Source of the DNA: Breznakia sp. PF5-3
Lineage (GTDB): Bacteria; Bacillota_I; Bacilli_A; Erysipelotrichales; Erysipelotrichaceae
DNA: 16,344 nucleotides
Assembly (NCBI RefSeq): GCF_029504745.1
Contig: NZ_JAQFIQ010000050.1
Span: 1 to 16,344, forward strand
Direction of reading: 5' to 3'
Under the pieces are notes generated by a model. The model was not told where the DNA came from. It searched no databases and saw only the letters and a program-made list of their open reading frames with translations. Both the position numbers and the translations under genes were made by a program. Positions 1 through 15,048 of the stretch are shown piece by piece (the stretch's first letter is position 1; every line of letters begins with the position of its first letter).

Positions 1-870
1 CTGTATTCGAAAGGTGTGACAACTGCTGAAATCGCTGACCTTATTGAAAAGATGTATGGTCATGCGTATTCACCAGCAACGATTTCAAACATCACGATGG
101 CAGTTGAAGAACATGTGCAAGCATTTCACTCGAGAAAACTGAACAAGCGTTATTCTGTTGTTTATGGTGATGCCACAATGATTAATGTCAGACGCGATAG
201 TGTTTCGAAAGAAGCGTTGCATATACTAATTGGGATTACCCATGAAGGAACTAAGGAGGTACTAGATTACCAACTATATCCACAAGAATCAAGCGAAAAC
301 TACAAAGAAATGCTTGAAGACATTAAGCAACGTGGTACTAAAGAAATTCTTCTTTTCGTAACGGATGGTTTAACTGGACTAGCGAATGCTTGCTTAGATG
401 TTTACCCAAAAGCAAAACATCAAGCTTGTTGGGTACATGTTCAACGAAGCGTTTCAAGAAACGTTCGTGCCAAAGATAAGAGAGAAGTTCTTGATGATTT
501 AAAACCGGTTTATAGGGCGAAAGATGAAGTTGAAGCACGAAATCATCTTGAAGCTTTTAAAGATAAATACAGAAGTCGTTACCCAAAGGTGATTAAATCA
601 CTAGCGGATAATCAATCACTATTCAGTTTTTATGAATTTCCAGAAGCAATTAGAAGTAGTCTTTATACGACAAATCTCATTGAGGGGATGAATAAGCAAC
701 TAAAGCGAAATACCAAACGTAAAGAACAATTTCCAAACGAGGATTCACTTGATCGTTTCGTATGTGACTACATGATGGATTATAACAGACGATTTTCCAC
801 ACGAATCCATAAAGGATTCGGATTAGTACAAGCAGAGATTAATGATATGTTTGACAAAAGATACAATTAA
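1..870 (+). CDS. IS256-family (Mutator-type DDE) transposase, 3' portion; the N-terminus lies left of the window
   Basis: Frame 1 is open from nt 1 (LYSKGVTTAEIADLIEKMYG...), so the GTG at 16 in the ORF track is not the true start. Family-typical motifs are present: YSPATISNIT, VVYGDATMINVR, FVTDGLTGL, CWVHVQR and TTNLIEGMNKQLKRNTKRK. Stop TAA at 868-870. Confidence 0.9.
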   Translation: MYSKGVTTAEIADLIEKMYGHAYSPATISNITMAVEEHVQAFHSRKLNKRYSVVYGDATMINVRRDSVSKEALHILIGITHEGTKEVLDYQLYPQESSENYKEMLEDIKQRGTKEILLFVTDGLTGLANACLDVYPKAKHQACWVHVQRSVSRNVRAKDKREVLDDLKPVYRAKDEVEARNHLEAFKDKYRSRYPKVIKSLADNQSLFSFYEFPEAIRSSLYTTNLIEGMNKQLKRNTKRKEQFPNEDSLDRFVCDYMMDYNRRFSTRIHKGFGLVQAEINDMFDKRYN

Positions 871-1493: not shown

Positions 1494-2168
1494 TCATTCT
1501 GTTTCGTAAATTAATGATTGAATGTGAATGGTTAGAAATATAATTTCTGTTCCTGTTAAGTCGAATTCATATTTTTGTTTTAGGAACTGTGCTATGTTTT
1601 CTGCACATTTATATGGTAATTGATATTTTTTTCTAGCTTCAGGAAACCATTCGTCTATATTGGATACATCTTTTTGTTTCTTTAAAATTCGAATGGATAG
1701 ATATTTTAAATGTTCGATTAGTCTTCTTCCAGATATAGATTTATGATCCAGTTTAAACATAAAATGATATTTTATCAGTTTTATCATTTCATTGATTTGT
1801 TCCATAATCTTAAGAATGTGAAGGGGTGAAACATGATGTCTAGCAGCAGCAATGATAATTGCTATATCTGCCATTGCATTATCATTCAAAGATAAGTTGA
1901 AGTTAGCATTCATATCTTCAATGATGACTTTAGACATACTATATTCTTCTTGAAAAAATGTAAGTACATTATATTTTGTGATATTGGATAAAGACAGTTG
2001 TACATGTTTGTAATCAACGTTGAGAAAATACTTATAGAGTGTAATATAGATTGAATTATCAATTTTTTCGGGTAATTTACTTTTAATATAAGATACATGC
2101 TTTTTTATGTAAGGGGCATAATTCATTATAGAAGGATGTGTATAAATGATGTTGTGAGTTTCTTTCAT
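1494..2168 (-). CDS. Stand-alone PRD-domain protein (PTS regulation domain) with no recognisable RNA- or DNA-binding module
   Basis: 224 aa. The C-terminal half matches the PRD pattern (ARKKYQLPYKCAENIAQFLKQKYEFDLTGTEIIFLTIHIQS). The N-terminal half has a second PRD-like unit (ADIAIIIAAARHH). RBS AGGAG (complement of 2176-2180) lies 7 nt before the ATG at 2168. Confidence 0.6.
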   Translation of the reverse strand: MKETHNIIYTHPSIMNYAPYIKKHVSYIKSKLPEKIDNSIYITLYKYFLNVDYKHVQLSLSNITKYNVLTFFQEEYSMSKVIIEDMNANFNLSLNDNAMADIAIIIAAARHHVSPLHILKIMEQINEMIKLIKYHFMFKLDHKSISGRRLIEHLKYLSIRILKKQKDVSNIDEWFPEARKKYQLPYKCAENIAQFLKQKYEFDLTGTEIIFLTIHIQSLIYETE

Positions 2169-2258: not shown

Positions 2259-3077
2259 ATGGAAAAAATTGATCGAGAAATATATTTATCAACAGGAGAG
2301 TTTGCAAAGATGGTGGGTATTCGTAGAAAACATCTAATTTATTATGATGAAATTGGATTGTTTTCGCCTGAAATTGTTTTAGATAATGGATATCGTTACT
2401 ATTATTATCGTCAATTGTATACATTAAATATGATTTTAACACTGAAAGAGATAGGGATGTCATTGGAAGAAATTAAGCAATTTACAGATAATAGAAATCC
2501 GGATAGTATGATTTCAATTTTTAAAAATCAAAATGAAAAAGTAGAGAAAGAAATCGAAAAATTAACTCTGATTAAAGATATGATGAAGGTTCATGTTGAA
2601 ACAGCACAACTTGCAAAATCAGTGAAGGTGGGAAGTATTCAAGTACTTGATTTTGATGAAGAGCCAATTTTTGTAGGAAGTGATAATATTTTTGAAGAAG
2701 ATGAAAAACCATTGCTTTCAAAAGCTATTTCAAGGTTTTACAAAAATGTTAGTTCACAAGGCTACAGTTTTGCTTTTCCAATCGGCTTTTATATTGATTA
2801 TGAGCAATATAAAAGAAAGAATTTTAAGTTTACTTCACATTTTTATTATCGAGTTGCTAGATCAAAGGAGTGTAAGCCAGCTGGGAAATATATTGTGCTA
2901 TATGAATGCAATGCATATAGTGATAGAAATGCTCTATATGAGAGAATATTTGCGTATGCTAAGAAACATCATTATAAACTCACAGGTTACATATATGAGG
3001 ACAATCTTTTAAATGAAATAACAGCAAAAGACCCCAAAGAATATATTTTGCGAATATCCATCAGAATAGATGAATAA
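2259..3077 (+). CDS. MerR-family transcriptional regulator with a C-terminal GyrI-like/effector-binding domain (BmrR-type architecture)
   Basis: N-terminal MerR HTH: YLSTGEFAKMVGIRRKHLIYYDEIGLFSPE...GYRYYYYRQLYTLNMILTLKEIGMSLEEIK. This is followed by a coiled-coil linker (NEKVEKEIEKLTLIKD) and a ~150-aa C-terminal domain of the GyrI-like type. Confidence 0.85.
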   Translation: MEKIDREIYLSTGEFAKMVGIRRKHLIYYDEIGLFSPEIVLDNGYRYYYYRQLYTLNMILTLKEIGMSLEEIKQFTDNRNPDSMISIFKNQNEKVEKEIEKLTLIKDMMKVHVETAQLAKSVKVGSIQVLDFDEEPIFVGSDNIFEEDEKPLLSKAISRFYKNVSSQGYSFAFPIGFYIDYEQYKRKNFKFTSHFYYRVARSKECKPAGKYIVLYECNAYSDRNALYERIFAYAKKHHYKLTGYIYEDNLLNEITAKDPKEYILRISIRIDE

Positions 3078-3115: not shown

Positions 3116-3730
3116 CTAAAATTCAATTTTACAAGATACCACCCTACCAATGATAGAAACAGGTAATTCATTTACTTCTTGAGCTGTGAAATAACGATTT
3201 TCATAATCTGGATTCGTTGCTTCTAAAATAAGTAAATTCTTTTCTTTGATTACTTTTTTGATAGTTGCTTCATCACCATTGATTACAACAACAGCAATAT
3301 CTCCAGAGTTTACATCAGATTGTGCTTTAACATAAACCTTACTACCATCAAAAATATGTGAGCCAATCATAGAGTCTCCTTTGACTTGAAGGAAGTAATC
3401 ACCTTTGTTTACGTCGGAATCACTTACTTCTTCATAACCTAGTAGTTGCTCATTTGCAATCAAATCATAGCCTGCCTTAACGAAGCCTAATACCGGCTTC
3501 ATTTTTTTTGAATGTTCTTTGGAGTCTTGATTATCCCAGCTGATTAAGGTCATGGGATCAATTTCTAAGATGGTTGCTAATTTTAAAATTTTGTCATTTT
3601 TAATATTTTTTATTTCACCAGTTTCCCAACGGGTAACCGTTGGCATACTTACACCAACATACTTTGCCACTTGCTCAGTTGTCAGTTTTAATGATTTTCT
3701 TTTTCTTCGAATATATTCATTCATTTGCAT
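3116..3730 (-). CDS. XRE-family HTH / S24 peptidase (LexA/CI-like) autocleavable repressor
   Basis: N-terminal XRE HTH: LKLTTEQVAKYVGVSMPTVTRWETGE. LexA-like cleavage-site context: PVLGFVKAGYDLIA (Ala86-Gly87). Catalytic Ser in VKGDSM (Ser120) and Lys in EATIKKV (Lys158), giving LexA-like Ser-Lys spacing. RBS GAGGTGA precedes the ATG at 3730. Confidence 0.85.
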   Translation of the reverse strand: MQMNEYIRRKRKSLKLTTEQVAKYVGVSMPTVTRWETGEIKNIKNDKILKLATILEIDPMTLISWDNQDSKEHSKKMKPVLGFVKAGYDLIANEQLLGYEEVSDSDVNKGDYFLQVKGDSMIGSHIFDGSKVYVKAQSDVNSGDIAVVVINGDEATIKKVIKEKNLLILEATNPDYENRYFTAQEVNELPVSIIGRVVSCKIEF

Positions 3731-3886: not shown

Positions 3887-5155
3887 ATGGAAGTTGCTGA
3901 AAAATTGAAAATATTAGCAGATAGTGCAAAATATGATGTTTCTTGTAGTTCGAGTGGAAGCGATCGCAAAAATACTGATAAAGGAATAGGAAATGCAAGT
4001 CTTTGTGGGATTTGTCATAGTTTCTCTGCAGATGGTAGATGTATTTCGTTGCTTAAAATATTAATGACCAATTCTTGCATCTATGACTGTAAATATTGTA
4101 TTAATCGAGCTTCTAATAATATTCAAAGAGCTTGTTTTACACCACAAGAGATAGCAGATATAACAATTAATTTTTATCGAAGAAATTATATAGAAGGTTT
4201 ATTTTTGAGTTCAGGAATTATCAAAAATCCAGATTATACAATGGAAATGCTGTGTGAAGCGATTTCTATTTTGCGTAATAAGTATCATTTTAATGGATAT
4301 ATTCATGCGAAAACAATTCCTGGTGCAAGTCAAGATATGATTAATAAGTTGGGGTTATTGGTAGATCGTATGAGTATTAATATAGAGTTACCTTCTAATC
4401 AAAGTTTGAAATTGCTTGCTCCCAATAAAGAAAAGGATGCTATTTTAGAACCTATGAAATATATTAAGAATACGGTTAAACAAGATCGAAAGTTTGTGCG
4501 AGCAGGGCAGACCACACAACTTATTATAGGTGCAACACCAGAGTCAGATTTTAAAATCTTATCCTTAGCTGAGGGAATGTATGGAAAGATGAACATGAAA
4601 AGAGTTTATTATTCCGCATATGTACCACTTAATCATGATGATCACTTACCAGCGCTTAAGAAACCGCCATTGTTAAGAGAGAATCGATTGTATCAAGCGG
4701 ATTGGTTGCTCCGATTTTATGGGTTTAAAGTTGAGGACCTTTTGGATGATAGTCATCAAAATTTCAATGAATTATTGGATCCTAAAGCAGATTGGGCATT
4801 GCACAATATGGATTATTTTCCAGTTGAAATTAATAAAGCTGATTACTATACACTTTTACGAGTTCCAGGGATTGGTGTTTTGTCAGCAAAGAAGATAATG
4901 GCAGCTAGAAAACATCATAAATTAACATTTGAAAGCTTAAAAAAAATGCGCGTTGTTTTAAAGCGGGCAAAATATTTTATTACCTGTGATGGGAAATATT
5001 TTGCAAGTACTTCATTTTTTAATAGTAATTTAATTTCTAGTGCATTAATCCATGATGAAAGAAAGCTGCTTATCGATTCAACGGATACAGTTCAATTATC
5101 ACTTTTTGAACCCACGACAAAGGATAGAGTAGAATGCATCACTGGACAGTTATAG
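3887..5155 (+). CDS. Putative DNA modification/repair radical SAM protein (TIGR03916-type) with a C-terminal helix-hairpin-helix
   Basis: N-terminal AEKLKILADSAKYDVSC... and CGICHS..DGRC, then the radical SAM cluster motif CIYDCKYC. C-terminal HhH-like LLRVPGIGVLSAKKIMAARK. RBS AGGAGG lies 6 nt upstream. Confidence 0.85.
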   Translation: MEVAEKLKILADSAKYDVSCSSSGSDRKNTDKGIGNASLCGICHSFSADGRCISLLKILMTNSCIYDCKYCINRASNNIQRACFTPQEIADITINFYRRNYIEGLFLSSGIIKNPDYTMEMLCEAISILRNKYHFNGYIHAKTIPGASQDMINKLGLLVDRMSINIELPSNQSLKLLAPNKEKDAILEPMKYIKNTVKQDRKFVRAGQTTQLIIGATPESDFKILSLAEGMYGKMNMKRVYYSAYVPLNHDDHLPALKKPPLLRENRLYQADWLLRFYGFKVEDLLDDSHQNFNELLDPKADWALHNMDYFPVEINKADYYTLLRVPGIGVLSAKKIMAARKHHKLTFESLKKMRVVLKRAKYFITCDGKYFASTSFFNSNLISSALIHDERKLLIDSTDTVQLSLFEPTTKDRVECITGQL

Positions 5156-5898
5156 ATTGTACTTATTTGTATGATGGTTCACTTGAAGGGATATTGAGTG
5201 TTGTGTATACATGTTTAAAAGATAAGCAAATCCCAAATATGGTTATAGAAGAAGAGAACTATGTTGGAAATTTATTTGAACAACCTAAAATGATTTCTAC
5301 AAATCTCGATCATTCTTCTTATATTCTCGAACAAATTCAAGAGAAGGTTTCAGATTTGGCTTTGTATTATGTATATACTTCATTTCTATCAAGTGACAAA
5401 AAGAAAGCCAATGCGCTTCTTCATTACATAATTTATGCTTTTAAATATGGATTTAAAATAAATCAAATGAAAAGTATAGATTGTGTCATTGAAGTACAAC
5501 GAATTGCTAAGAATGTGAAATACGAAGCTCATCGATTTTCAGGCTTTATAAGATTTAAGGAATTAGAAAATAAGTTTTTATATGCTGAGTATGAATCTGA
5601 TAATGATATTTTAACGTTCTTGGCAGATCATTTCAGTGATCGATTGCAACAAGAGATATGGATGATTCATGATAAGACGAGGTTTCAAATTGCTTTATAC
5701 AATCGTGATGAATATATTATTGTAGATTCTAAAACAATTGATTTGACAATAATTGAAAGTGATCAAGAGGATTATTATCTACAATTATGGAAAGACTATT
5801 TTAAAAACATAACGATTAAAGAAAGAGAAAACAGGCGTTGTCAGCGAAGTTTTATGCCAAAAAAATATTGGAAATATTTACCAGAAACAAAAGGATAA
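5134..5898 (+). CDS. DUF4130 / TIGR03915-family putative DNA metabolism protein (obligate partner of the radical SAM protein)
   Basis: N-terminal YLYDGSLEGILSVVY and C-terminal RRCQRSFMPKKYWKYLPE signatures are typical of the family. It overlaps the upstream gene by 22 nt (5134-5155), suggesting translational coupling. A TTG at 5167 is an alternative start. Confidence 0.8.
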   Translation: MHHWTVIDCTYLYDGSLEGILSVVYTCLKDKQIPNMVIEEENYVGNLFEQPKMISTNLDHSSYILEQIQEKVSDLALYYVYTSFLSSDKKKANALLHYIIYAFKYGFKINQMKSIDCVIEVQRIAKNVKYEAHRFSGFIRFKELENKFLYAEYESDNDILTFLADHFSDRLQQEIWMIHDKTRFQIALYNRDEYIIVDSKTIDLTIIESDQEDYYLQLWKDYFKNITIKERENRRCQRSFMPKKYWKYLPETKG

Positions 5899-5918: not shown

Positions 5919-7562
<1,644 letters not shown>

Positions 7563-7587
7563 TTTAAAGAAAAATATAACATAAAAA

Positions 7588-7628
7588 ACAAAGTAAAAAT
7601 AACCTTCAATTTTACTTTGTTTTTGTTT
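7588..7628 (+). terminator. Intrinsic terminator of the radical SAM/DUF4130/chaperonin operon
   Basis: ACAAAGTAAAA (7588-7598), 11-nt loop, TTTTACTTTGT (7610-7620), followed by TTTTGTTT. The stem is AT-rich but has 11 perfect base pairs. Confidence 0.6.
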
Positions 7629-7750
7629 ATAGTTCATTACAAATTAATTAGGATTTATAACAACATGAGAAAATTATCACAAATCTGTGGCAATATAGAT
7701 ACAAATGATTTAACTGTATTTTAATATTTATGATTATCTTTATTACGATG

Positions 7751-7796
7751 TATATCACTATTGTTTAAATACAATTTATAGTGATATATTTTTTTA
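7751..7796 (+). terminator. Terminator-like hairpin plus T-run, function unknown
   Basis: TATATCACTAT (7751-7761) pairs with ATAGTGATATA (7778-7788) across a 16-nt loop, followed by a T-run ending at 7796. No annotated gene ends here. Confidence 0.3.
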
Positions 7797-8052
7797 TCTT
7801 TGATAAAAATACAGCGATTATTTTAGGAATGATATAAACAGGGAAGAAGTAGAATGAGATTTTTAAATTAATAAAATCGTCACCAATGGGTTTGATTTAT
7901 GAAAATTGAAACTTTTTTGAATTAAATGGACGATTTTAATTTTATGTTGTGTCTAGATTAATGAGTGGGAAAAATAAAATGAACGATTTGGAAATTTTTC
8001 CCTACAAATTAAGGAGGGATAAGACATAATAAGCAGGAGGGCAAGTATATAT

Positions 8053-9348
8053 ATGGACAAAAGGATGAATAAGGTTGAAGAAGATACAATCGTAAAAGCA
8101 CAGGCGGGCGATACGGATGCGTTTTCAGAAATATACAAGGTATATTATAATAGAGTTTATTTTATTGCTTATCAATATTATCGAGATAGCGAAACAGCAA
8201 AAGATATTGTACAAGAAGTGTTTATAAGAGTTTATAGAAAAATTAAGCAATTAAAAGAACCAGTAACATTTAATGCATGGCTTGGGAAAGTGACTTACTC
8301 TATTTGTGTTAATCATAAAAGAGGAAAGCTGAAAACAATTGATTTAGGAGACACTATGGATATTGAAGACTTTGGTGATCATAATCATGTATCTGTGGAA
8401 GAGGTTTTAGAAAATCAAAGAATTAAAGAAACTATATTTGAATCTTTGGAGACGATGAGTGCACCATTAAAAAGTGTAGGGTTATTGCGTTATTATCAAG
8501 AATTTTCAATTAATGAGATAGCTGATATATTAGATATCCCCCATGGAACTGTAACTTCAAGGATAAATAGAATTAAGAAGATTCTAAAAGTAGATTTGGA
8601 GAATAAAGGAATAACACCAAAAAACTATATGTTGGTAATATCGCCATCATTGCTATGTGCTGCTTATCAAGAATTGAGTAATAAGTATGTTCTTAATCAG
8701 GCAAGTAGCAATAATATTTTAGATAGTATTTTACATAGCCCCAAATTACTGTTAGCAGGGCTTTTTCCAAAGATAGCAACTGTAGGTGTTTTGAGTGCTG
8801 CAATAACAACAGGAATGCTGTTAACAAGAGATACATCATCATCGGTTTCTGCAGATGTTATTGCTCCTCCATATTCGCGCGAGATGATGATTGTGGAAAC
8901 GGCAAAAATAGAAGAAATTAGCTATGATAAAAATTGGACCAATAAGGCTATTAAGCTAAATATTACAACATCAAATGATAACTATGACCAAATTACAATA
9001 AATGATGAAGTAACAGATATGATTAGTGAAAATGGAAATTATAAGATTCAATTAAGGAAAGATGGAAAGGTAATCGATGAAAAACGGATTAAAGTATCCA
9101 ACATAGATATTCATAGTCCAAATGGAACATATAAGCAAAGCGAAAATACATTTACATATCATTTGAATGATGATTTATCACAAATTGATCCAACAAGCAT
9201 TCGCTTTTATAAAGATGGTGTACCAAGCGAAGAATATCATTACAATGTAGAAGATAATGTATTAACAATTCTCAGTGTTGGAGATACAATAGATACATTT
9301 TTTATCAGTGATCAAGCAGGAAATGAACTGGAAATTATAATTAAATAG
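8053..9348 (+). CDS. ECF-type sigma-70 factor fused to a transmembrane helix and an extracytoplasmic C-terminal domain (sigma/anti-sigma-like single polypeptide)
   Basis: Region 2: DAFSEIYKVYYNRVYFIAYQYYRDSETAKDIVQEVFIRVY...FNAWLGKVTYSICVNHKR. Region 4: LLRYYQEFSINEIADILDIPHGTVTSRINRIKKIL (nt ~8053-8610). A ~50-aa linker follows, then a hydrophobic helix LLLAGLFPKIATVGVLSAAITTGMLL (~8746-8826), then a ~170-aa beta-rich domain (8827-9345). The frame is continuous with no stop at the junction. AGGAGG lies 11 nt before the ATG. Confidence 0.8.
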   Translation: MDKRMNKVEEDTIVKAQAGDTDAFSEIYKVYYNRVYFIAYQYYRDSETAKDIVQEVFIRVYRKIKQLKEPVTFNAWLGKVTYSICVNHKRGKLKTIDLGDTMDIEDFGDHNHVSVEEVLENQRIKETIFESLETMSAPLKSVGLLRYYQEFSINEIADILDIPHGTVTSRINRIKKILKVDLENKGITPKNYMLVISPSLLCAAYQELSNKYVLNQASSNNILDSILHSPKLLLAGLFPKIATVGVLSAAITTGMLLTRDTSSSVSADVIAPPYSREMMIVETAKIEEISYDKNWTNKAIKLNITTSNDNYDQITINDEVTDMISENGNYKIQLRKDGKVIDEKRIKVSNIDIHSPNGTYKQSENTFTYHLNDDLSQIDPTSIRFYKDGVPSEEYHYNVEDNVLTILSVGDTIDTFFISDQAGNELEIIIK

Positions 9349-9370
9349 ATTAAAATACGGAGGAAATAAG

Positions 9371-10462
9371 ATGAAGAAAAAAGTAATATCATTATTTATA
9401 TTAAGCATTATATGTGGAGTGTTTTTTGTAGGTGAGACAAGTGGAGTAAGTGCAGATTCGGAAATTGATACAGATGTAGAATTTCACAATTTAACAAATC
9501 CAGGTAGAGCATTTACAGAGGATGATGAAATCCAAGTAAAAATTACAATGAGCTCAGAACGTAAGCTCAAAAACATTTATTTAAGTATGGAATGTGTAAA
9601 CTATGAAATTTTAGATGGAAGTATAAGTTTTTCAGAGCCGCTTTCAAGCTATGGGATACAAAGCGATGGATCATATGAATTTAAGATTAGTACAATGGAA
9701 GCTGATACAAAGTATACGTTAATATACACAATTCGTTTTACAGGAACGGTTGGAAGCAATGTTGAAATGATTGCACCAGCTTCGTTTGGATATCGAGGAA
9801 CATACAGTGTTGGAGGAATATTTGGAGGTGCCAATGTACAATATGCAGGTACAGAAATTTATGCAGCACCACAAAAACAAATTCAAAAGACCTCTAAGAA
9901 CCTTACTAGTGTAGATGGGACAAATAACGTTGGGGATATGGTTGAATACACAATTGTAGTAAAAAACAATGCAACAAATGCATCTTTGTGGGATAAGATT
10001 AATGTATATGATTATTTACCTTTAGGAATGAGTATTGATACAAATACGATTACTGTAAATGGAAGTAATATTAGTAATTATGTAGAAAAAAACAATGGAG
10101 ATATTATAATTCCATTGAATAATCTAACAAATGGTCAATCCGCAACGATTACATATCGTGGAATAATATTAGATTCAGCAGTTTCAAAAACAATTATTAA
10201 TACTGCCGAAGTAGATACATTAAAAGCAAAAGATAATGGTCTTTATGTATCTGCAAAAGAAAAACCAAGTGTTGTCCCAGATAAAGATGATTCGACAAAT
10301 AATAAAACAACAATTATGAAGCCTAGTGTAGCAAATCCCAAAGCTGCTAGTGGAAGTACAGTTAATACTGCAGATACAACAAATACATCATTGTTATTGT
10401 TATTAATGGGTGTAAGCTCTATTAGTGCATTGATGATGTTGAGAAAGCAAAAAAGATCTTAG
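9371..10462 (+). CDS. Secreted cell-surface protein with DUF11-type repeat domain(s) and a C-terminal anchor signal
   Basis: Signal peptide MKKKVISLFILSIICGVFFVGETSGVSA. Canonical DUF11/conserved-repeat pattern: VGDMVEYTIVVKNNATNASLWDKINVYDYLPLGMSID...GQSATITYRGII. A degenerate copy lies upstream. Ser/Thr/Pro/Lys-rich stalk. C-terminus is VNTAD + LLLLLMGVSSISALMML + RKQKRS. GGAGG RBS; 22 nt after the sigma gene. Confidence 0.7.
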   Translation: MKKKVISLFILSIICGVFFVGETSGVSADSEIDTDVEFHNLTNPGRAFTEDDEIQVKITMSSERKLKNIYLSMECVNYEILDGSISFSEPLSSYGIQSDGSYEFKISTMEADTKYTLIYTIRFTGTVGSNVEMIAPASFGYRGTYSVGGIFGGANVQYAGTEIYAAPQKQIQKTSKNLTSVDGTNNVGDMVEYTIVVKNNATNASLWDKINVYDYLPLGMSIDTNTITVNGSNISNYVEKNNGDIIIPLNNLTNGQSATITYRGIILDSAVSKTIINTAEVDTLKAKDNGLYVSAKEKPSVVPDKDDSTNNKTTIMKPSVANPKAASGSTVNTADTTNTSLLLLLMGVSSISALMMLRKQKRS

Positions 10463-10478
10463 GATCTTTTTTTGTTTT
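10449..10478 (+). terminator. Weak hairpin/T-run overlapping the stop codon, possibly a partial terminator
   Basis: AAAAAAGATC (10449-10458), loop TTAG (includes stop TAG 10460-10462), GATCTTTTTT (10463-10472), then TGTTTT. The stem is almost all A-T, so termination is probably leaky. Confidence 0.4.
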
Positions 10479-10608
10479 AAAATGACAATTATACTTTTGA
10501 TTGTTTACAATTGTCAGAAATATTGGTTACTTTTGTAAAGTGCTTTTTGTAAGCTCTTTCATTTATAATGTGAATATAGACGCAATGTTTATTGAGGAGG
10601 AGCAAGAT

Positions 10609-13600
10609 ATGTATACAAAGAAACTGTATAAAGTAGGGTATGTTTTCATTTGTACGTTGCTAATCGTATCATCATTTTATAGTAATACGATTAGTTTAGA
10701 AGCAAGTGATATTCGTGATGATATTCGCGAAGTCGTTGAAGAAGGAACATTCACAAAAGGATCAAATGGGGAAATCCTTAAGGATTTTACTTCACAAAAT
10801 GGGACATTACAAAAAAATGAGGGAGAGATCACCCTTTCAAAGGAAGCAGGAGATCATTTTGTCGCTTATGATGCAGATAAGCGCTATAAAAGTTTTATCT
10901 ATGAGGCGGATGTTGATGTTTTGGATGGACCTAGTGCAGCATTATTAGTAGGAATAAAAAATAAGGATAATGTGAGCGCGGAAACATGGTATGGAGCAAA
11001 TTTTAATACCAATGATTTTGATAATACAGCTAGATTGTTTAAAGTTAATGATTTTCAAGAATACTTTAAAGTAAATAAAGATGATGCTACAGCGATTGTA
11101 GATTTTAATCAAACACTTCATTTGTCAATTGAATTTAAAGAAAATGGAGATTTTATATATAAATTATCTAATAAGGGAAGCAATCAAGTATTAGAAAAAA
11201 GCGGAAATGTGGCAGGATGGGAAGGCGGATATGTAGGTTTGCTTACCTTTGATACAGAAGCAAAATATTCTAACATAAAACTTTTAGATACATCACTTTC
11301 AAATTCGCAGTCTTTGTTTAAAACAGATTTATCTAATCTGCATGCAAAAGAAGGTGCATGGAGTGTGCAAGGAAACGGGTTACAAAGTGTTTCTGAAGAT
11401 TATAAAGATGCAATTTTACTTTCTGATGCAACAGCGAAAAATTTTGTATATCGTGCAGATGTAAAATTTAATGAACGTAAAGATACAGCTGCTTCATTAG
11501 TCTTTAGAGCTGATAGTGATATGAATAACAAAAATATGTATGTAGCAAATCTGAATGCACAATCCGGAGAAGCACGTATCTTTAAGTTTGAAGATGGAAG
11601 AGCATTAGATTTGGTTCAATCTCAAAAAATAAAATTAAATGATAAAAATGAATATCATTTAAAAGTAACAGCAATTGATAAGCATTTTGTCTTCTACATT
11701 AATGGAGAGTTAGTGCTGAACACAGCAGACTATACGATGGGAAGTGTTGGTGGACAAAATGATGCCCTTCTTGATGGACAATTAGGGCTTATGACATGGA
11801 ATGGTAATGTTACATATCAAAATGTAGAATTTATGGAACTTGATGATACAACAACACCTACATTAAGCCAATTATCGATTGTACCAAATGGAACGATTGA
11901 TCAAGATTTGAAATTTGCAGATGGTCAATATGTATATATTGGATATGTGAAAAATGATACAACATCAATAGCTCTTGATGCGACTAAGAAAAATAGTAAT
12001 ACGGATTTGGTTGTAACAAATGCTAATGGGGATGTATTAGATATCAACAATTTACCTGTAACACTAGGAAAAAATGTGTTTACGATTACAGCAAGTAATG
12101 GAAATGCAAAACTTGTGTATCGCGTAATGGTGCATAAACGTCTTCCAGATGCAAATTACTATAATGAAGATTATCGTGGACAATACCATTATTCAGTAAA
12201 AGAAGGATGGGCGAATGATCCAAATGGTATGGTTTATTATAATGGGAAATATCATTTATTTTATCAATTTTATAATGATACAAATTGGGGGCCAATGCAT
12301 TGGGCACATGCAACTAGTAGTGATTTGATTCATTGGGATGAACAACCAATTGAATTTTATCCAGATGAATATGGAACGATGTTTTCAGGGTGTGCTGTAA
12401 TTGATGAAGGTAATACATCAGGATTGTTTAGTAGTAATGCGGGTGGATTGGTTGCCTTAATTACTACCGATGGAAATGGACAAAGAGTAATAGCTGCATA
12501 TAGTGAAGATGGAGAAACTTGGGAAAAAGCAGAAGGTGTTGCAATTGATTGGACAGAAGATTCTTTACAATCAGAAGCATTCCGTGATCCAAAGGTTTTC
12601 CGTTACGAAGGAAAATGGTTTATGGTCATTGCAGGAGGCCAATTAAGAATTTATTCTTCTGATAATTTATTAGATTGGACAGAAGAATCTGTTTATCCAA
12701 ACTTGCATACAGAATGCCCTGATTTATATCCACTTGAAGTAGTAGATGAGCAAGGTGTAAAAACAGGAGAAAGTAAATGGGTATTGGATAGAGGTGGACG
12801 CCAATATAAGGTAGGAGACTTTAAGCAAGTAGATGGTAATTGGGAATTTGTTCCTGATGATGCATATAAGAGTAATAATGATGCAAAAGGAATGGGACAT
12901 CATGATGTAGATGGAATTATGAATTTTGGAAAAGATTCTTATGCAGCAATGACATATTATATGGGTGATTTTGGAACAAGCACATCAATGAATCATCAAC
13001 GAATTATTGCGATAAACTGGATGAATACGTGGGAAGATTATTGTAATTTAGTAGATGATGCATCTAATAATACGGTATTCAATGGTACTTTTAATTTACA
13101 GTTGGAATTATCATTGACCAAAAATGATAATGGTGACTATGTATTACGTCAAGTACCAATTAAGGAATATGAGGATTTACGTGATACAGAGATAAAATAT
13201 GAAAATGTTGAGGTAACAGAAGGAAAAAATATTTTAGCAGACTTTAAAGGTGATACATATGAGGTAGTGGCAAACTTCAAACCACAATCTGGTACAAAAG
13301 AAGTAGGTTTTAAAGCACGTACTGGAAACAATCAAGAAACAGTAGTGAAATACAATTTTGAAACACAAAAAATTACTATTGATCGTTCAAAATCAGGAGC
13401 ATATCCAACAGCGAAATTCTTGGAAGTGGATGAGCAAAGAGTAAAAGTAAATGATGATGGTTCAATTGATTTGCATATTTATGTAGATAAAGCGAGTATT
13501 GAAGTATTCACAAAGGATTATACAGTTACTGGAGCAAATCAAATATTTCCAAACCCAACAAGTTTAGGGGCAGAAGTATTTTGTGTTGGTGAAGCAGCAA

Positions 13601-15048
13601 CAGCCAATATTACGATTTATTCTATGGAATCTATTTGGACAGACAAAGTTATTCCAACACAACCAATTGCAATTGGATTGAGTGATCATGAAAAAAATAT
13701 ATACGTTGATGATCAATTTGATTTAGATGCTTGGGTAACACCACTTAATGTGAGCCAAGATGTAGAATGGAAAGTAGAAGATGAAAATATCTTAAGTGTT
13801 ACACCAGCTACAAAAGAAAACCGTATGAAAGTAACTGCACTGAGTGCAGGGACTACGAAGATAACTGTAGCAAGTAAAACCAATCCAGAAATTAAAGCAG
13901 AATGTATAGTGAATGTTAGGGTAGATAATTTCCAAACAAATTTAAGTGGGTATACAGCTAATGGAGGAACATGGTACATAGATGATACATATTATCATGG
14001 AATAGATAGTGGAAATGCGTTTATGTTTGCTGAAAATAGAGCAACGATAGATACGTATACCTATGAAAGTGATGTGCTATATAAGAATGGAATTGTAAAT
14101 GTTATCTTTGCTTCTCAGACAACGAATGTATGGGACGGATGTTATGCTGTGCAATTAGTTGATAACAAAGTAAGACTATTTGACTTCAAAGGTGATTATA
14201 CATTTGCTGAAACATTTACATTGAAAAAAGCAAGTGATGATATTTATCATGTTGAGATAGATGTTGAAGGTGATAGGATTATTGTGAAGGTTAATGGAGA
14301 GCAATATATAGATCATACATTAAGCAATGCAGAGCAATCTAGAAGTTATCGTAATGGTTTATTTGGTATGGGAATTTATAATGCTCATGCACAATTTGCC
14401 AATGTCTTTGTTACAACATCTGCACCAGCAACACAAGTGATAGATACCTTTGATACGATTGAAATGACATTTGATAAAAGCTTGGATGATTTAAAAGCAG
14501 TATTAGCTACAGAAGCTAGTGTTGCCTGTGATGCTGGGATTGTGAAAAAAGAAAAAGAAACAATCACATGGGATTTAAGTGGTGTTAATATGGAAATTCC
14601 AGGAGTTTATGAAATTACAGGGAAAACAGCATCCAACTTAGAAGTTAGTGTACAACTTGTAATTAAGGCAGATAAGCAATCTATGTTGCCACCAATGGAG
14701 GCGTACAAAGACTTGGATAAAACATTGTATACAAGGGAAAGTGTAGAGATCTATACAGAAGCTTACTTTGAAGCACTTCTTATATACAACAATCCAAATG
14801 CTACTTATTCGCAAATGTTAAGTGCAATTGAACAATTGCAGCAAGCAAGAGAAGGATTAGAAAAATTAAGTACAACGCCTGATAAAAAGCCTAATGATGA
14901 TGGTAAGCCTGCTACAAAACCAACTGATTCAATTGAAAAAGGAAATGGAGTTATGTCAGGAGATAACAGTAATGTCTTTGGATATATGATACTTTTGATT
15001 AGTAGTGTAATAATTCTTGCATTTGCTCGAAAGAAAGTAAAAGAATAA
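10609..15048 (+). CDS. Large multidomain cell-surface GH32 beta-fructosidase (levanase/inulinase/fructanase-like)
   Basis: Start is ATG 10609, preceded by GAGGAGGAG (10594-10602), and followed by a signal/TM segment YKVGYVFICTLLIVSSFY. GH32 catalytic motifs: WANDPNG (Asp codon 12217-12219), FRDPKVF (Asp 12586-12588) and ECPDL (Glu 12712-12714). Approximate domain order in nt: two ConA/LamG-like modules (10740-11850), cadherin-like sandwich (11860-12140), GH32 propeller plus C-terminal sandwich (12160-13640), Big_2 Ig-like (13660-13925), third ConA-like module (13930-14420), Ig-like (14430-14680), FIVAR-like helical (14690-14870), Pro/Lys linker, then anchor signal VMSGD + hydrophobic helix + RKKVKE. 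Confidence 0.9.
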   Translation: MYTKKLYKVGYVFICTLLIVSSFYSNTISLEASDIRDDIREVVEEGTFTKGSNGEILKDFTSQNGTLQKNEGEITLSKEAGDHFVAYDADKRYKSFIYEADVDVLDGPSAALLVGIKNKDNVSAETWYGANFNTNDFDNTARLFKVNDFQEYFKVNKDDATAIVDFNQTLHLSIEFKENGDFIYKLSNKGSNQVLEKSGNVAGWEGGYVGLLTFDTEAKYSNIKLLDTSLSNSQSLFKTDLSNLHAKEGAWSVQGNGLQSVSEDYKDAILLSDATAKNFVYRADVKFNERKDTAASLVFRADSDMNNKNMYVANLNAQSGEARIFKFEDGRALDLVQSQKIKLNDKNEYHLKVTAIDKHFVFYINGELVLNTADYTMGSVGGQNDALLDGQLGLMTWNGNVTYQNVEFMELDDTTTPTLSQLSIVPNGTIDQDLKFADGQYVYIGYVKNDTTSIALDATKKNSNTDLVVTNANGDVLDINNLPVTLGKNVFTITASNGNAKLVYRVMVHKRLPDANYYNEDYRGQYHYSVKEGWANDPNGMVYYNGKYHLFYQFYNDTNWGPMHWAHATSSDLIHWDEQPIEFYPDEYGTMFSGCAVIDEGNTSGLFSSNAGGLVALITTDGNGQRVIAAYSEDGETWEKAEGVAIDWTEDSLQSEAFRDPKVFRYEGKWFMVIAGGQLRIYSSDNLLDWTEESVYPNLHTECPDLYPLEVVDEQGVKTGESKWVLDRGGRQYKVGDFKQVDGNWEFVPDDAYKSNNDAKGMGHHDVDGIMNFGKDSYAAMTYYMGDFGTSTSMNHQRIIAINWMNTWEDYCNLVDDASNNTVFNGTFNLQLELSLTKNDNGDYVLRQVPIKEYEDLRDTEIKYENVEVTEGKNILADFKGDTYEVVANFKPQSGTKEVGFKARTGNNQETVVKYNFETQKITIDRSKSGAYPTAKFLEVDEQRVKVNDDGSIDLHIYVDKASIEVFTKDYTVTGANQIFPNPTSLGAEVFCVGEAATANITIYSMESIWTDKVIPTQPIAIGLSDHEKNIYVDDQFDLDAWVTPLNVSQDVEWKVEDENILSVTPATKENRMKVTALSAGTTKITVASKTNPEIKAECIVNVRVDNFQTNLSGYTANGGTWYIDDTYYHGIDSGNAFMFAENRATIDTYTYESDVLYKNGIVNVIFASQTTNVWDGCYAVQLVDNKVRLFDFKGDYTFAETFTLKKASDDIYHVEIDVEGDRIIVKVNGEQYIDHTLSNAEQSRSYRNGLFGMGIYNAHAQFANVFVTTSAPATQVIDTFDTIEMTFDKSLDDLKAVLATEASVACDAGIVKKEKETITWDLSGVNMEIPGVYEITGKTASNLEVSVQLVIKADKQSMLPPMEAYKDLDKTLYTRESVEIYTEAYFEALLIYNNPNATYSQMLSAIEQLQQAREGLEKLSTTPDKKPNDDGKPATKPTDSIEKGNGVMSGDNSNVFGYMILLISSVIILAFARKKVKE

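Follow-up and report, generated by a model that had tools for sequence, protein, structure and literature searches.

In the 16,344-nucleotide stretch of Breznakia sp. PF5-3 analysed here (hereafter the window), one gene at positions 8053-9348 of the forward strand encodes an extracytoplasmic function (ECF) sigma factor that continues, within the same polypeptide, into a predicted transmembrane segment and two tandem immunoglobulin (Ig)-like domains, and it is followed by the gene of a secreted surface protein. This architecture and its pairing with the surface-protein gene in an operon are, taken on their own, close to certain. In addition, we favour with moderate confidence an interpretation in which the protein would be an autoregulated, membrane-tethered pro-sigma factor, released by regulated proteolysis and driving its own operon together with the adhesin gene that this contains. 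The one-component signalling role across the membrane that an earlier note had proposed for this gene remains the best reading of such an architecture in the absence of a separate anti-sigma factor. The parts of the protein are the following.

8053-9348, forward strand: the whole gene, with ECF sigma factor, transmembrane segment and tandem Ig-like domains in one 431-residue protein
8134-8325, forward strand: sigma region 2, residues 28-91 (Pfam PF04542, Sigma70_r2; 48.2 bits against a cut-off of 24)
8446-8583, forward strand: sigma region 4, residues 132-177 (Pfam PF08281, Sigma70_r4_2; 28.8 bits against a cut-off of 25.7)
8605-8745, forward strand: juxtamembrane linker, residues 185-231, predicted to be helical and putatively cytoplasmic, with the conserved motif GISPKNY..V.SP..I..AY..LS
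8746-8826, forward strand: single predicted transmembrane segment, residues 232-258, rich in Gly, Ala, Ser and Thr (Kyte-Doolittle profile and charge bias across the family)
8827-8901, forward strand: variable spacer, residues 259-283, putatively extracytoplasmic, the least conserved region
8902-9345, forward strand: two tandem Ig/Fn3-like beta-sandwich domains, residues 284-355 and 356-431 (AlphaFold2 model with a predicted local distance difference test score, pLDDT, of 96.1; Foldseek)

The open reading frame starts with ATG and runs uninterrupted through 431 codons, in a window of 32% G+C. Residues 1-184 are a complete ECF sigma factor: besides the matches to regions 2 and 4, the Sigma70_ECF match (PF07638, 26.5 bits against a cut-off of 21.1) covers residues 13-181 above the Pfam gathering threshold, and the NCBIfam model of the sigma70-ECF superfamily, TIGR02937, reaches 88.1 bits (cut-off 42.9). 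No match to region 3 was found, and regions 2 and 4 without region 3 or region 1.1 are what defines an ECF (group 4) factor. None of the NCBIfam equivalogs searched (SigW, SigM, SigV, SigX and others) attains its cut-off, the best being SigW (PRK09641) with 107 bits against 209; by sequence, the sigma part appears closest to the SigW-like ECFs of Bacillota. In the full-length AlphaFold2 model this part is helical (pLDDT of about 80), and Foldseek relates it to SigW (5wuq), AlgU, sigma-E and other ECF structures, the best matches being compact, anti-sigma-bound conformations, which is weak evidence for a cytoplasmic segment that would bind regions 2 and 4 and block access to the core enzyme.

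From this module the frame passes directly into a linker of about 50 residues, as the earlier note had read it. The same note had feared a sequencing error near 8610-8650 hiding a stop or a frameshift, which would artificially join an ordinary sigma gene to an anti-sigma gene, and to this possibility we give next to no credence. Both alternative frames across 8500-8900 are full of stops, and the exact 431-residue protein is present on six contigs from several sequencing runs, two of which (L089, run SRR35247137, and L090, run SRR35246390) match the window at 100% identity for 7296 and 4610 nucleotides, respectively. Moreover, the fusion is kept in 91 of 97 relatives, with identities as low as about 27%, including several paralogs in the isolate genome of Breznakia pachnodae DSM 16784. 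Together, the identical DNA in independent assemblies, the closed alternative frames and the fused relatives rule out a frameshift or missed stop.

The relatives define the extent of this architecture. A word-indexed search returned 15 full-length relatives with 36-55% identity, several of them paralogs from the isolate genome of Breznakia pachnodae; the nearest named ones belong to Breznakia (55% identity). An exhaustive phmmer/HMMER search with residues 185-431, the part outside the sigma module, against 1.84 billion representatives retrieved 90 proteins, almost all of them 400-485 residues long and matched at about residues 185-435. Profiles of the sigma and C-terminal parts both matched 91 of the 97 family members, sigma first and with the hydrophobic segment between the two matches, and the remaining six (103-226 residues) begin inside the linker, the transmembrane segment or the ectodomain and resemble truncated fragments. 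The survey for split versions that the earlier note had called for, with separate sigma and anti-sigma proteins or a stand-alone domain, found no convincing case among the 90 matches; five large multi-repeat proteins at their weak end are the non-fused exceptions. In a scan of one genome per species (185,579 species), full-length relatives were restricted to B. pachnodae, B. blatticola, a Coprobacillaceae metagenome-assembled genome that carries three sigma-fusion units, and Erysipelotrichaceae bacterium MTC7, all other matches covering the sigma part only. Adding the units found through single-protein look-ups, B. pachnodae has at least five. These distributions describe what appears to be a narrow and previously undescribed Erysipelotrichales family of fusions, each made of sigma factor, transmembrane segment and two Ig-like domains and coupled to adhesin genes.

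The conservation along 15 aligned members is uneven. Mean pairwise identity amounts to 54% in sigma region 2 and 52% in region 4, declines through the linker (32%), the transmembrane segment (28%) and the spacer (24%), and rises again to 47% and 43% in the first and second Ig-like domains. The ectodomain is thus nearly as constrained as the sigma domain, with the spacer as a variable stalk between membrane and ectodomain.

The linker, measured from the end of region 4 to the transmembrane segment, is 39-74 residues long across the family, and AlphaFold2 models it as three helices (residues 189-227) at low to moderate pLDDT. Its single Cys is not conserved, and neither a His/Cys motif nor a zf-HC2 match that would indicate a zinc site was found in it. 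The Kyte-Doolittle profile of the protein displays one hydrophobic peak only, with a 19-residue maximum of 1.83 at residues 233-251 and all top windows inside residues 229-259. The single, strongly hydrophobic helix formerly placed at about 8746-8826 is therefore correct in number and position, but its hydrophobicity is moderate. Across the family the segment has a mean Kyte-Doolittle value of 1.95 (1.6 or more in 83 of 91 members), is rich in Gly, Ser, Thr and Pro, and keeps its Gly positions. Its N-terminal flank carries on average 2.6 Lys/Arg and 0.4 Asp/Glu, and its C-terminal flank 1.4 and 2.2, respectively. Because of this positive-inside bias, and because a sigma factor must be cytoplasmic, we infer an N-in/C-out topology, which would place the C-terminal domain outside the cell, as the earlier note had argued on the second ground alone. 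In the full-length AlphaFold2 model, the transmembrane segment and the spacer are disordered or of low confidence.

Small or helix-destabilising residues in a transmembrane helix are typical of site-2 protease substrates. Judged by its sequence, the predicted single-pass, N-in/C-out helix with its helix-destabilising residues is the kind of segment expected of a substrate of regulated intramembrane proteolysis. The spacer varies between 8 and 73 residues across the family, and such hypervariability is like that of a flexible, protease-accessible stalk.

Beyond the helix, residues 259-431 consist of the variable spacer of about 25 residues followed by 148 residues that are all beta, in agreement with the beta-rich C-terminal part of about 170 residues that had been noticed before. 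The C-terminal 152 residues, modelled alone by AlphaFold2, form two beta-sandwiches. Foldseek searches of the PDB with this ectodomain retrieved the Ig1-2 domains of MDGA1, the SiiE adhesin, the Fn3 modules of CbhA, and SraP, all with E-values of 3e-4 or weaker and about 12% identity; no Pfam family matched it beyond sub-threshold noise. As these matches are weak and of the tandem Ig/Fn3 type, the fold is generic and not that of a carbohydrate-binding module. Carbohydrate-binding folds, which the earlier note had suggested looking for, were sought with Pfam and with Foldseek against the PDB, and neither gave a match to such a module. The ectodomain contains 12 invariant residues (D352, P356 and D420, for example), and its profile, run against the proteins of 14 loci, matched the sigma fusions only, not their partners or neighbours.

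The second half of the conserved arrangement lies outside the fusion itself, in the upstream region and in the gene that follows, with the features listed here.

7949-7955, forward strand: conserved block M2, a T-run and then GTGTCTA (GTGTCT invariant in upstream alignment A4)
7980-8009, forward strand: ECF-type promoter motif M1, TGAAC-N17-CTACAAAT (the sole strict match in the window, against 0.01 expected)
9371-10462, forward strand: partner gene, a secreted surface protein of 363 residues (signal peptide, borderline DUF11-type repeat, sorting-type tail)
10444-10478, forward strand: A/U-rich hairpin with a T-run, overlapping the partner stop codon, inverted repeat I1 (-14 kcal/mol, z-score -3.3)

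The partner gene starts 22 nucleotides 3' of the stop codon of the sigma fusion, with which it is probably co-transcribed. No anti-sigma gene was found in the window; the next gene, at 9371, encodes a protein with a signal peptide and a sorting-type tail (TVNTADTTN, a hydrophobic stretch, RKQKRS), and the two corresponding statements of the earlier note therefore stand. The hairpin at the end of the partner gene is a probable weak terminator of the two-gene operon. We compared 12 distinct units, namely that of the window and L001a, L001b, L002, L004, L005/L010, L007, L011, L012, L013, L014 and L015. In 10 of them, a gene for a secreted protein (363-1304 residues) begins 1-45 nucleotides downstream of the sigma fusion; in L012 the start of the partner is uncertain and the called open reading frame lies 188 nucleotides downstream, and in L015 (from MTC7) the surface-protein gene is immediately upstream of the fusion. 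The partner is a secreted protein in all 12. A tail of the form [V/I]-x-[T/S]-[G/A/M]-D, followed by a hydrophobic and then a basic stretch, ends the partner in 11 of the 12 units and scores weakly against the LPXTG anchor model. The bodies of the partners are mutually unrelated and contain DUF11-like, Big_8, Listeria-Bacteroides repeat, PMP repeat or SpaA-type domains, which makes them look like adhesins. The partner in the window is 42% identical over its full length to that of the B. pachnodae unit L001b. Taken together, the conserved functional unit is the sigma fusion plus a surface protein, and not the sigma fusion plus a glycoside hydrolase.

Two further observations concern the C-terminal parts of these partners. 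The partners (3' ends of their genes, at 10280-10462 in the window and in L001, L002, L004, L010, L011 and L014) are alike only in their last 55 or so residues, and a motif T-(I/T)-(I/M)-(N/K)-P-S-x-A-N-P is conserved 15-25 residues before their VxTGD tail. This motif, which is lacking in the large glycoside hydrolase family 32 (GH32) protein encoded farther downstream, may act as an additional signal for sorting or processing that only these adhesins carry.

Upstream of the fusion, M1 has the classic layout of an ECF promoter, with AAC at -35 and CGA or CTA at -10. In its alignment form it reads AAA(A/G)TGAAC-N16/17-C(G/T)AC(A/T)AAT, and the strict pattern used for counting was TGAAC-N16/17-CKACWAAT. 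Every sigma unit of L001 (two units), L002, L004 and L011 has a single strict match upstream, and there is none in 81 other loci; L007 has a variant that differs by one base. M1 is thus a putative, and on this evidence probable, autoregulated promoter of the two-gene operon, since an operon preceded by an ECF-type motif suggests positive autoregulation by the sigma factor that it encodes. The block M2 is more widespread, being present upstream of most sigma genes of the family, including the divergent Coprobacillaceae units, and could be either an extended -10 element of sigma-A type or a second ECF-like -10 element. In Bacillus, ECF operons commonly have a basal promoter and, after it, one that is autoregulated and of ECF type. 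At the B. pachnodae locus L001 (6738-12515, the same as L009), two units of sigma fusion and adhesin gene stand in tandem and M2 and M1 are present separately for each of them, which points to a recent duplication of the whole cassette, promoters included.

Two other candidates for shared upstream elements were discarded. A -35 element for M2 (GGNAC-N15-17-GTGTC) is inconsistent between loci, unmatched in the window and no rarer than background, and the small open reading frames upstream of the sigma gene in L005 and L007 are mutually unrelated and absent from the window. Likewise, no Rfam RNA element matches positions 7400-10700 (leader and intergenic regions) at E-values up to 1.

The presence of two conserved upstream blocks, one of them perhaps a housekeeping-type promoter, also bears on a different interpretation, in which the C-terminal extension would be a mere anchor or localisation device, control would lie in transcription alone, with other factors reading M2 and M1, and the sigma factor would be freed constitutively or by turnover. 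The ectodomain, which bears no ligand-binding signature, would be consistent with this. Nevertheless, its identity of 43-47%, against 52-54% in the sigma regions, and its 12 invariant residues mean that it is almost as conserved as the sigma factor, which speaks for a specific interaction and against a passive anchor; we therefore regard a purely anchoring role as improbable.

In the favoured interpretation, the regulated pro-sigma factor, the sigma module (regions 2 and 4, residues 1-184) would lie in the cytoplasm, connected by the helical linker of about 50 residues to the single N-in/C-out helix, and the two Ig-like domains would face the cell wall on their flexible spacer. The full-length protein would be held at the membrane, possibly with the sigma factor masked by the linker, until an extracytoplasmic event on the ectodomain or the spacer permits trimming at site 1. 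A site-2 protease of RasP/RseP type would then cut within the membrane, and the freed, soluble sigma factor would transcribe its own operon, adhesin gene included. The proteolytic step is proposed by analogy with the fusion IutY and with what has been put forward for the groups ECF52, ECF48 and ECF53 (see below), and is supported by the richness of the transmembrane segment in Gly, Ser and Thr and by the variability of the stalk.

Several observations weigh against this scheme. Residues 181-431 have no match to an anti-sigma domain in Pfam at E-values up to 10, the linker corresponds to no Pfam family at all, and a 13-sequence profile of it retrieved nothing from the sequences of the PDB. As no anti-sigma domain is thus detectable there, inhibition of the full-length protein is conjectural. 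The transmembrane segment of the window protein is only moderately hydrophobic and contains Lys240 beside Pro239, and no linked protease gene was found in the window. As for autoregulation, strict M1 is confined to a Breznakia-like subclade, the divergent units L012-L015 lacking it; its -35 element TGAAC is common to all paralogs, so M1 might be read by a different, common ECF sigma factor; and M2, as a second conserved block, might be the site that the sigma fusion reads.

The lack of a recognisable anti-sigma domain also speaks for another interpretation, in which the sigma factor is never released and works from the membrane in the manner of ToxR or CadC: it would bring RNA polymerase to its own operon near the membrane, and the ectodomain would switch its activity through a change of conformation or oligomeric state. 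The long linker of 39-74 residues could give the sigma factor reach, the regulated gene lies in cis and its product is secreted, and the Gly-rich helix might just as well serve in dimerisation; a tethered sigma factor could in this way couple transcription to adhesin secretion. No sigma factor, however, is known to be active while still anchored in the membrane. The joining of a core enzyme of about 400 kDa and the passage through promoter escape would also be awkward with a tether, and IutY, the sole fusion that has been dissected, is freed by proteolysis (PMC5411451). We hold permanent tethering to be unlikely.

Comparison with known systems shows which parts of the proposed pro-sigma factor have precedents. 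IutY of Pseudomonas putida is a fusion of sigma and anti-sigma factor from which Prc and then RseP free the sigma domain (PMC5411451; PMC8999054). It resembles the window protein in having a cytoplasmic ECF sigma factor, a single transmembrane helix and an extracytoplasmic domain in one polypeptide, without a separate anti-sigma factor. In contrast, IutY is a FecI/FecR hybrid (ECF243) of a Gram-negative bacterium, with an anti-sigma/periplasmic domain of FecR type and a TonB-dependent receptor, and responds to aerobactin, whereas the window protein comes from Bacillota and has a tandem Ig-like ectodomain and a cell-wall-anchored, adhesin-like partner. Neither FecR nor any other anti-sigma family of Pfam is detected in residues 181-431 at the same limit, and no TonB-dependent transducer is present among the neighbours in the window (GroEL, surface protein, GH32) or at the loci of the family. 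Fusions that span the membrane have also been described in the groups ECF52, ECF48 and ECF53; among them, SCO4117 of Streptomyces coelicolor (ECF52) is autoregulated and has been proposed to be processed (PMC5826349; PMC8999054). As in the window protein, the sigma factor is extended at its C-terminus through the membrane into a domain outside the cytoplasm. These groups are found only in Actinobacteria and combine a ZAS-type zinc finger (HxxxCxxC) after the sigma factor with a Pro-rich region and a carbohydrate-binding domain, and none of these hallmarks is present in the window protein.

Systems with separate components offer other partial parallels. SigW-RsiW and SigV-RsiV, pairs with a single-pass anti-sigma factor and regulated intramembrane proteolysis by RasP, share with the window protein the order of cytoplasmic regulator, one transmembrane helix and outer sensor, and their promoters are of the type that M1 resembles, with AAC at -35 and CGA or CTA at -10; in these systems, sigma and anti-sigma factor are separate proteins and the anti-sigma domain is recognisable, whereas the window protein is fused and none is detectable. 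The SigI-RsgI systems of cellulolytic clostridia are similar in that several paralogous units occur per genome, each beside genes for a different extracellular protein, with a sensor past a single helix (PMC10575876). Nevertheless, SigI is not an ECF factor, and its RsgI, encoded as a protein of its own, combines an RsgI_N domain with polysaccharide-binding modules that vary by paralog, whereas the ectodomain of the window family is conserved. In ToxR and CadC, too, one protein joins a DNA-directed part in the cytoplasm to an outer sensor by a helix that crosses the membrane once, but their cytoplasmic part is a winged-helix activator that acts while tethered, whereas a sigma factor must bind the RNA polymerase core. 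Among the Firmicutes groups given in the main text of the ECF classification 2.0 (Casas-Pastor et al. 2021), none combines one transmembrane helix with an Ig-like extension.

The earlier description of fusions spanning the membrane as rare and poorly studied was accordingly too strong, given that IutY has been dissected experimentally (PMC5411451) and that ECF52, ECF48 and ECF53 have been described (PMC8999054; PMC5826349). The concept is already known, and it is the absence of an anti-sigma domain, the ectodomain and the partner that set the window family apart. The next-nearest ECFs (P0016-P0021 and P0023, 334-535 residues, one cluster holding 430 sequences) also have a sigma module, a linker of 50-90 residues, one hydrophobic segment and a C-terminal domain, which is unrelated to that of the window family; their linker motif (FYGVxPxPFL) is weakly similar to the linker of the family (hhalign probability 28%). 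Fused proteins of this general design may therefore be a broad, unrecognised class in Bacillota.

The earlier note had also brought fructans into play, and the gene of a large, cell-wall-anchored GH32 enzyme lies 146 nucleotides beyond the partner gene in the same orientation. In such an interpretation, the fusion would be a fructan-sensing regulator that binds fructan with its ectodomain and controls the adjacent fructanase. Our comparisons make this very unlikely. GH32 adjoins none of the 11 other units of the family, whose further neighbours include phosphotransferase system genes, regulators and ABC transporters, and a GH32 gene next to the sigma fusion in the window only does not support fructan sensing. 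M1 is missing upstream of the GH32 gene, in strict as in relaxed form, and the hairpin with its T-run and a separate, operator-like inverted repeat intervene between the sigma operon and GH32. The ectodomain is also generic in fold, as said above, and about 50% identical between paralogs with entirely different neighbours. Regulon membership (GH32, fructan) is thus not to be read from adjacency in a single genome.

As the ectodomain is this similar between paralogs beside entirely different adhesins, a signal common to all of them is more likely than a specific glycan such as fructan. This could be a protease, the condition of the cell wall or cell surface, or the C-terminal stalk that the partners share. 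The ectodomain might, rather than sensing an external nutrient, monitor the export, sorting or cell-wall anchoring of its own adhesin, for example through the shared stalk T-I-x-N-P-S-x-A-N-P ... VxTGD; alternatively, a tethered sigma factor might couple transcription, translation and secretion of the adhesin at one site of the membrane. We consider these two readings speculative and quite unlikely; if true, either would amount to a regulatory logic new among sigma factors.

The interest of the family lies partly in how few such proteins have been studied, the proteobacterial IutY being the only membrane-spanning ECF fusion dissected mechanistically; ECF factors with regulatory extensions are the one-component systems among sigma factors. 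The window protein provides a compact and tractable Gram-positive example, with 431 residues, one helix, a small and well-folded ectodomain and an evident output (its own promoter and an adhesin gene), and the family is present in cultured strains, among them Breznakia pachnodae DSM 16784 and B. blatticola DSM 28867. From this example one could learn how a sigma factor lacking a recognisable anti-sigma domain stays silent, and how gut Erysipelotrichales switch between surface adhesins.

Some features of the GH32 region deserve mention in their own right. The gene at 10609-15048 (forward strand) probably starts at ATG 10609 and not at the mechanically assigned TTG 10501, and its product is called as 1479 residues in another assembly. 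The protein has a signal peptide beginning MYTKKLYKVGYVFICTLL, modules resembling 3-keto-disaccharide hydrolase and cadherin as well as Big_2 modules, and a C-terminal end made of GVMSGDNSN, a hydrophobic stretch and RKKVKE. As this VxxGD-type tail is common to the GH32 protein and the sigma partners, it seems to be the general cell-wall sorting signal of the organism. The inverted repeat TGACAATTATA-N12-TACAATTGTCA at 10483-10516, between the partner and GH32 genes, is the operator-like element mentioned above and suggests that GH32 has a regulator of its own.

Upstream of the sigma operon, a GroEL-like gene (5922-7562, forward strand) follows a DUF4130/TIGR03915 gene after 24 nucleotides and has no groES upstream of it. 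Its product scores 568 bits against an equivalog cut-off of 582 and ends in ...DSNAGLY, without a Gly-Gly-Met tail. It is preceded by a LexA-like repressor gene (3116-3730, reverse strand) and by a putative DNA-repair pair resembling radical-SAM and UDG proteins (3887-5898), and could possibly be a divergent second chaperonin in a damage-inducible cluster. At the start of the window, the open reading frame of a Mutator/IS256-family transposase (16-870, forward strand) matches positions 115-375 of the 379 of its profile, a partial match which indicates that the transposase is truncated at its N-terminus or cut by the window start. Finally, the gene at 1494-2168 (reverse strand) encodes a protein of 224 residues with a single PRD domain (residues 127-218) and no match to a CAT/RNA-binding domain, which may be a truncated or atypical antiterminator of BglG type; near it lie a HAD_SAK_2 gene (966-1457) and a MerR-family gene (2259-3077).

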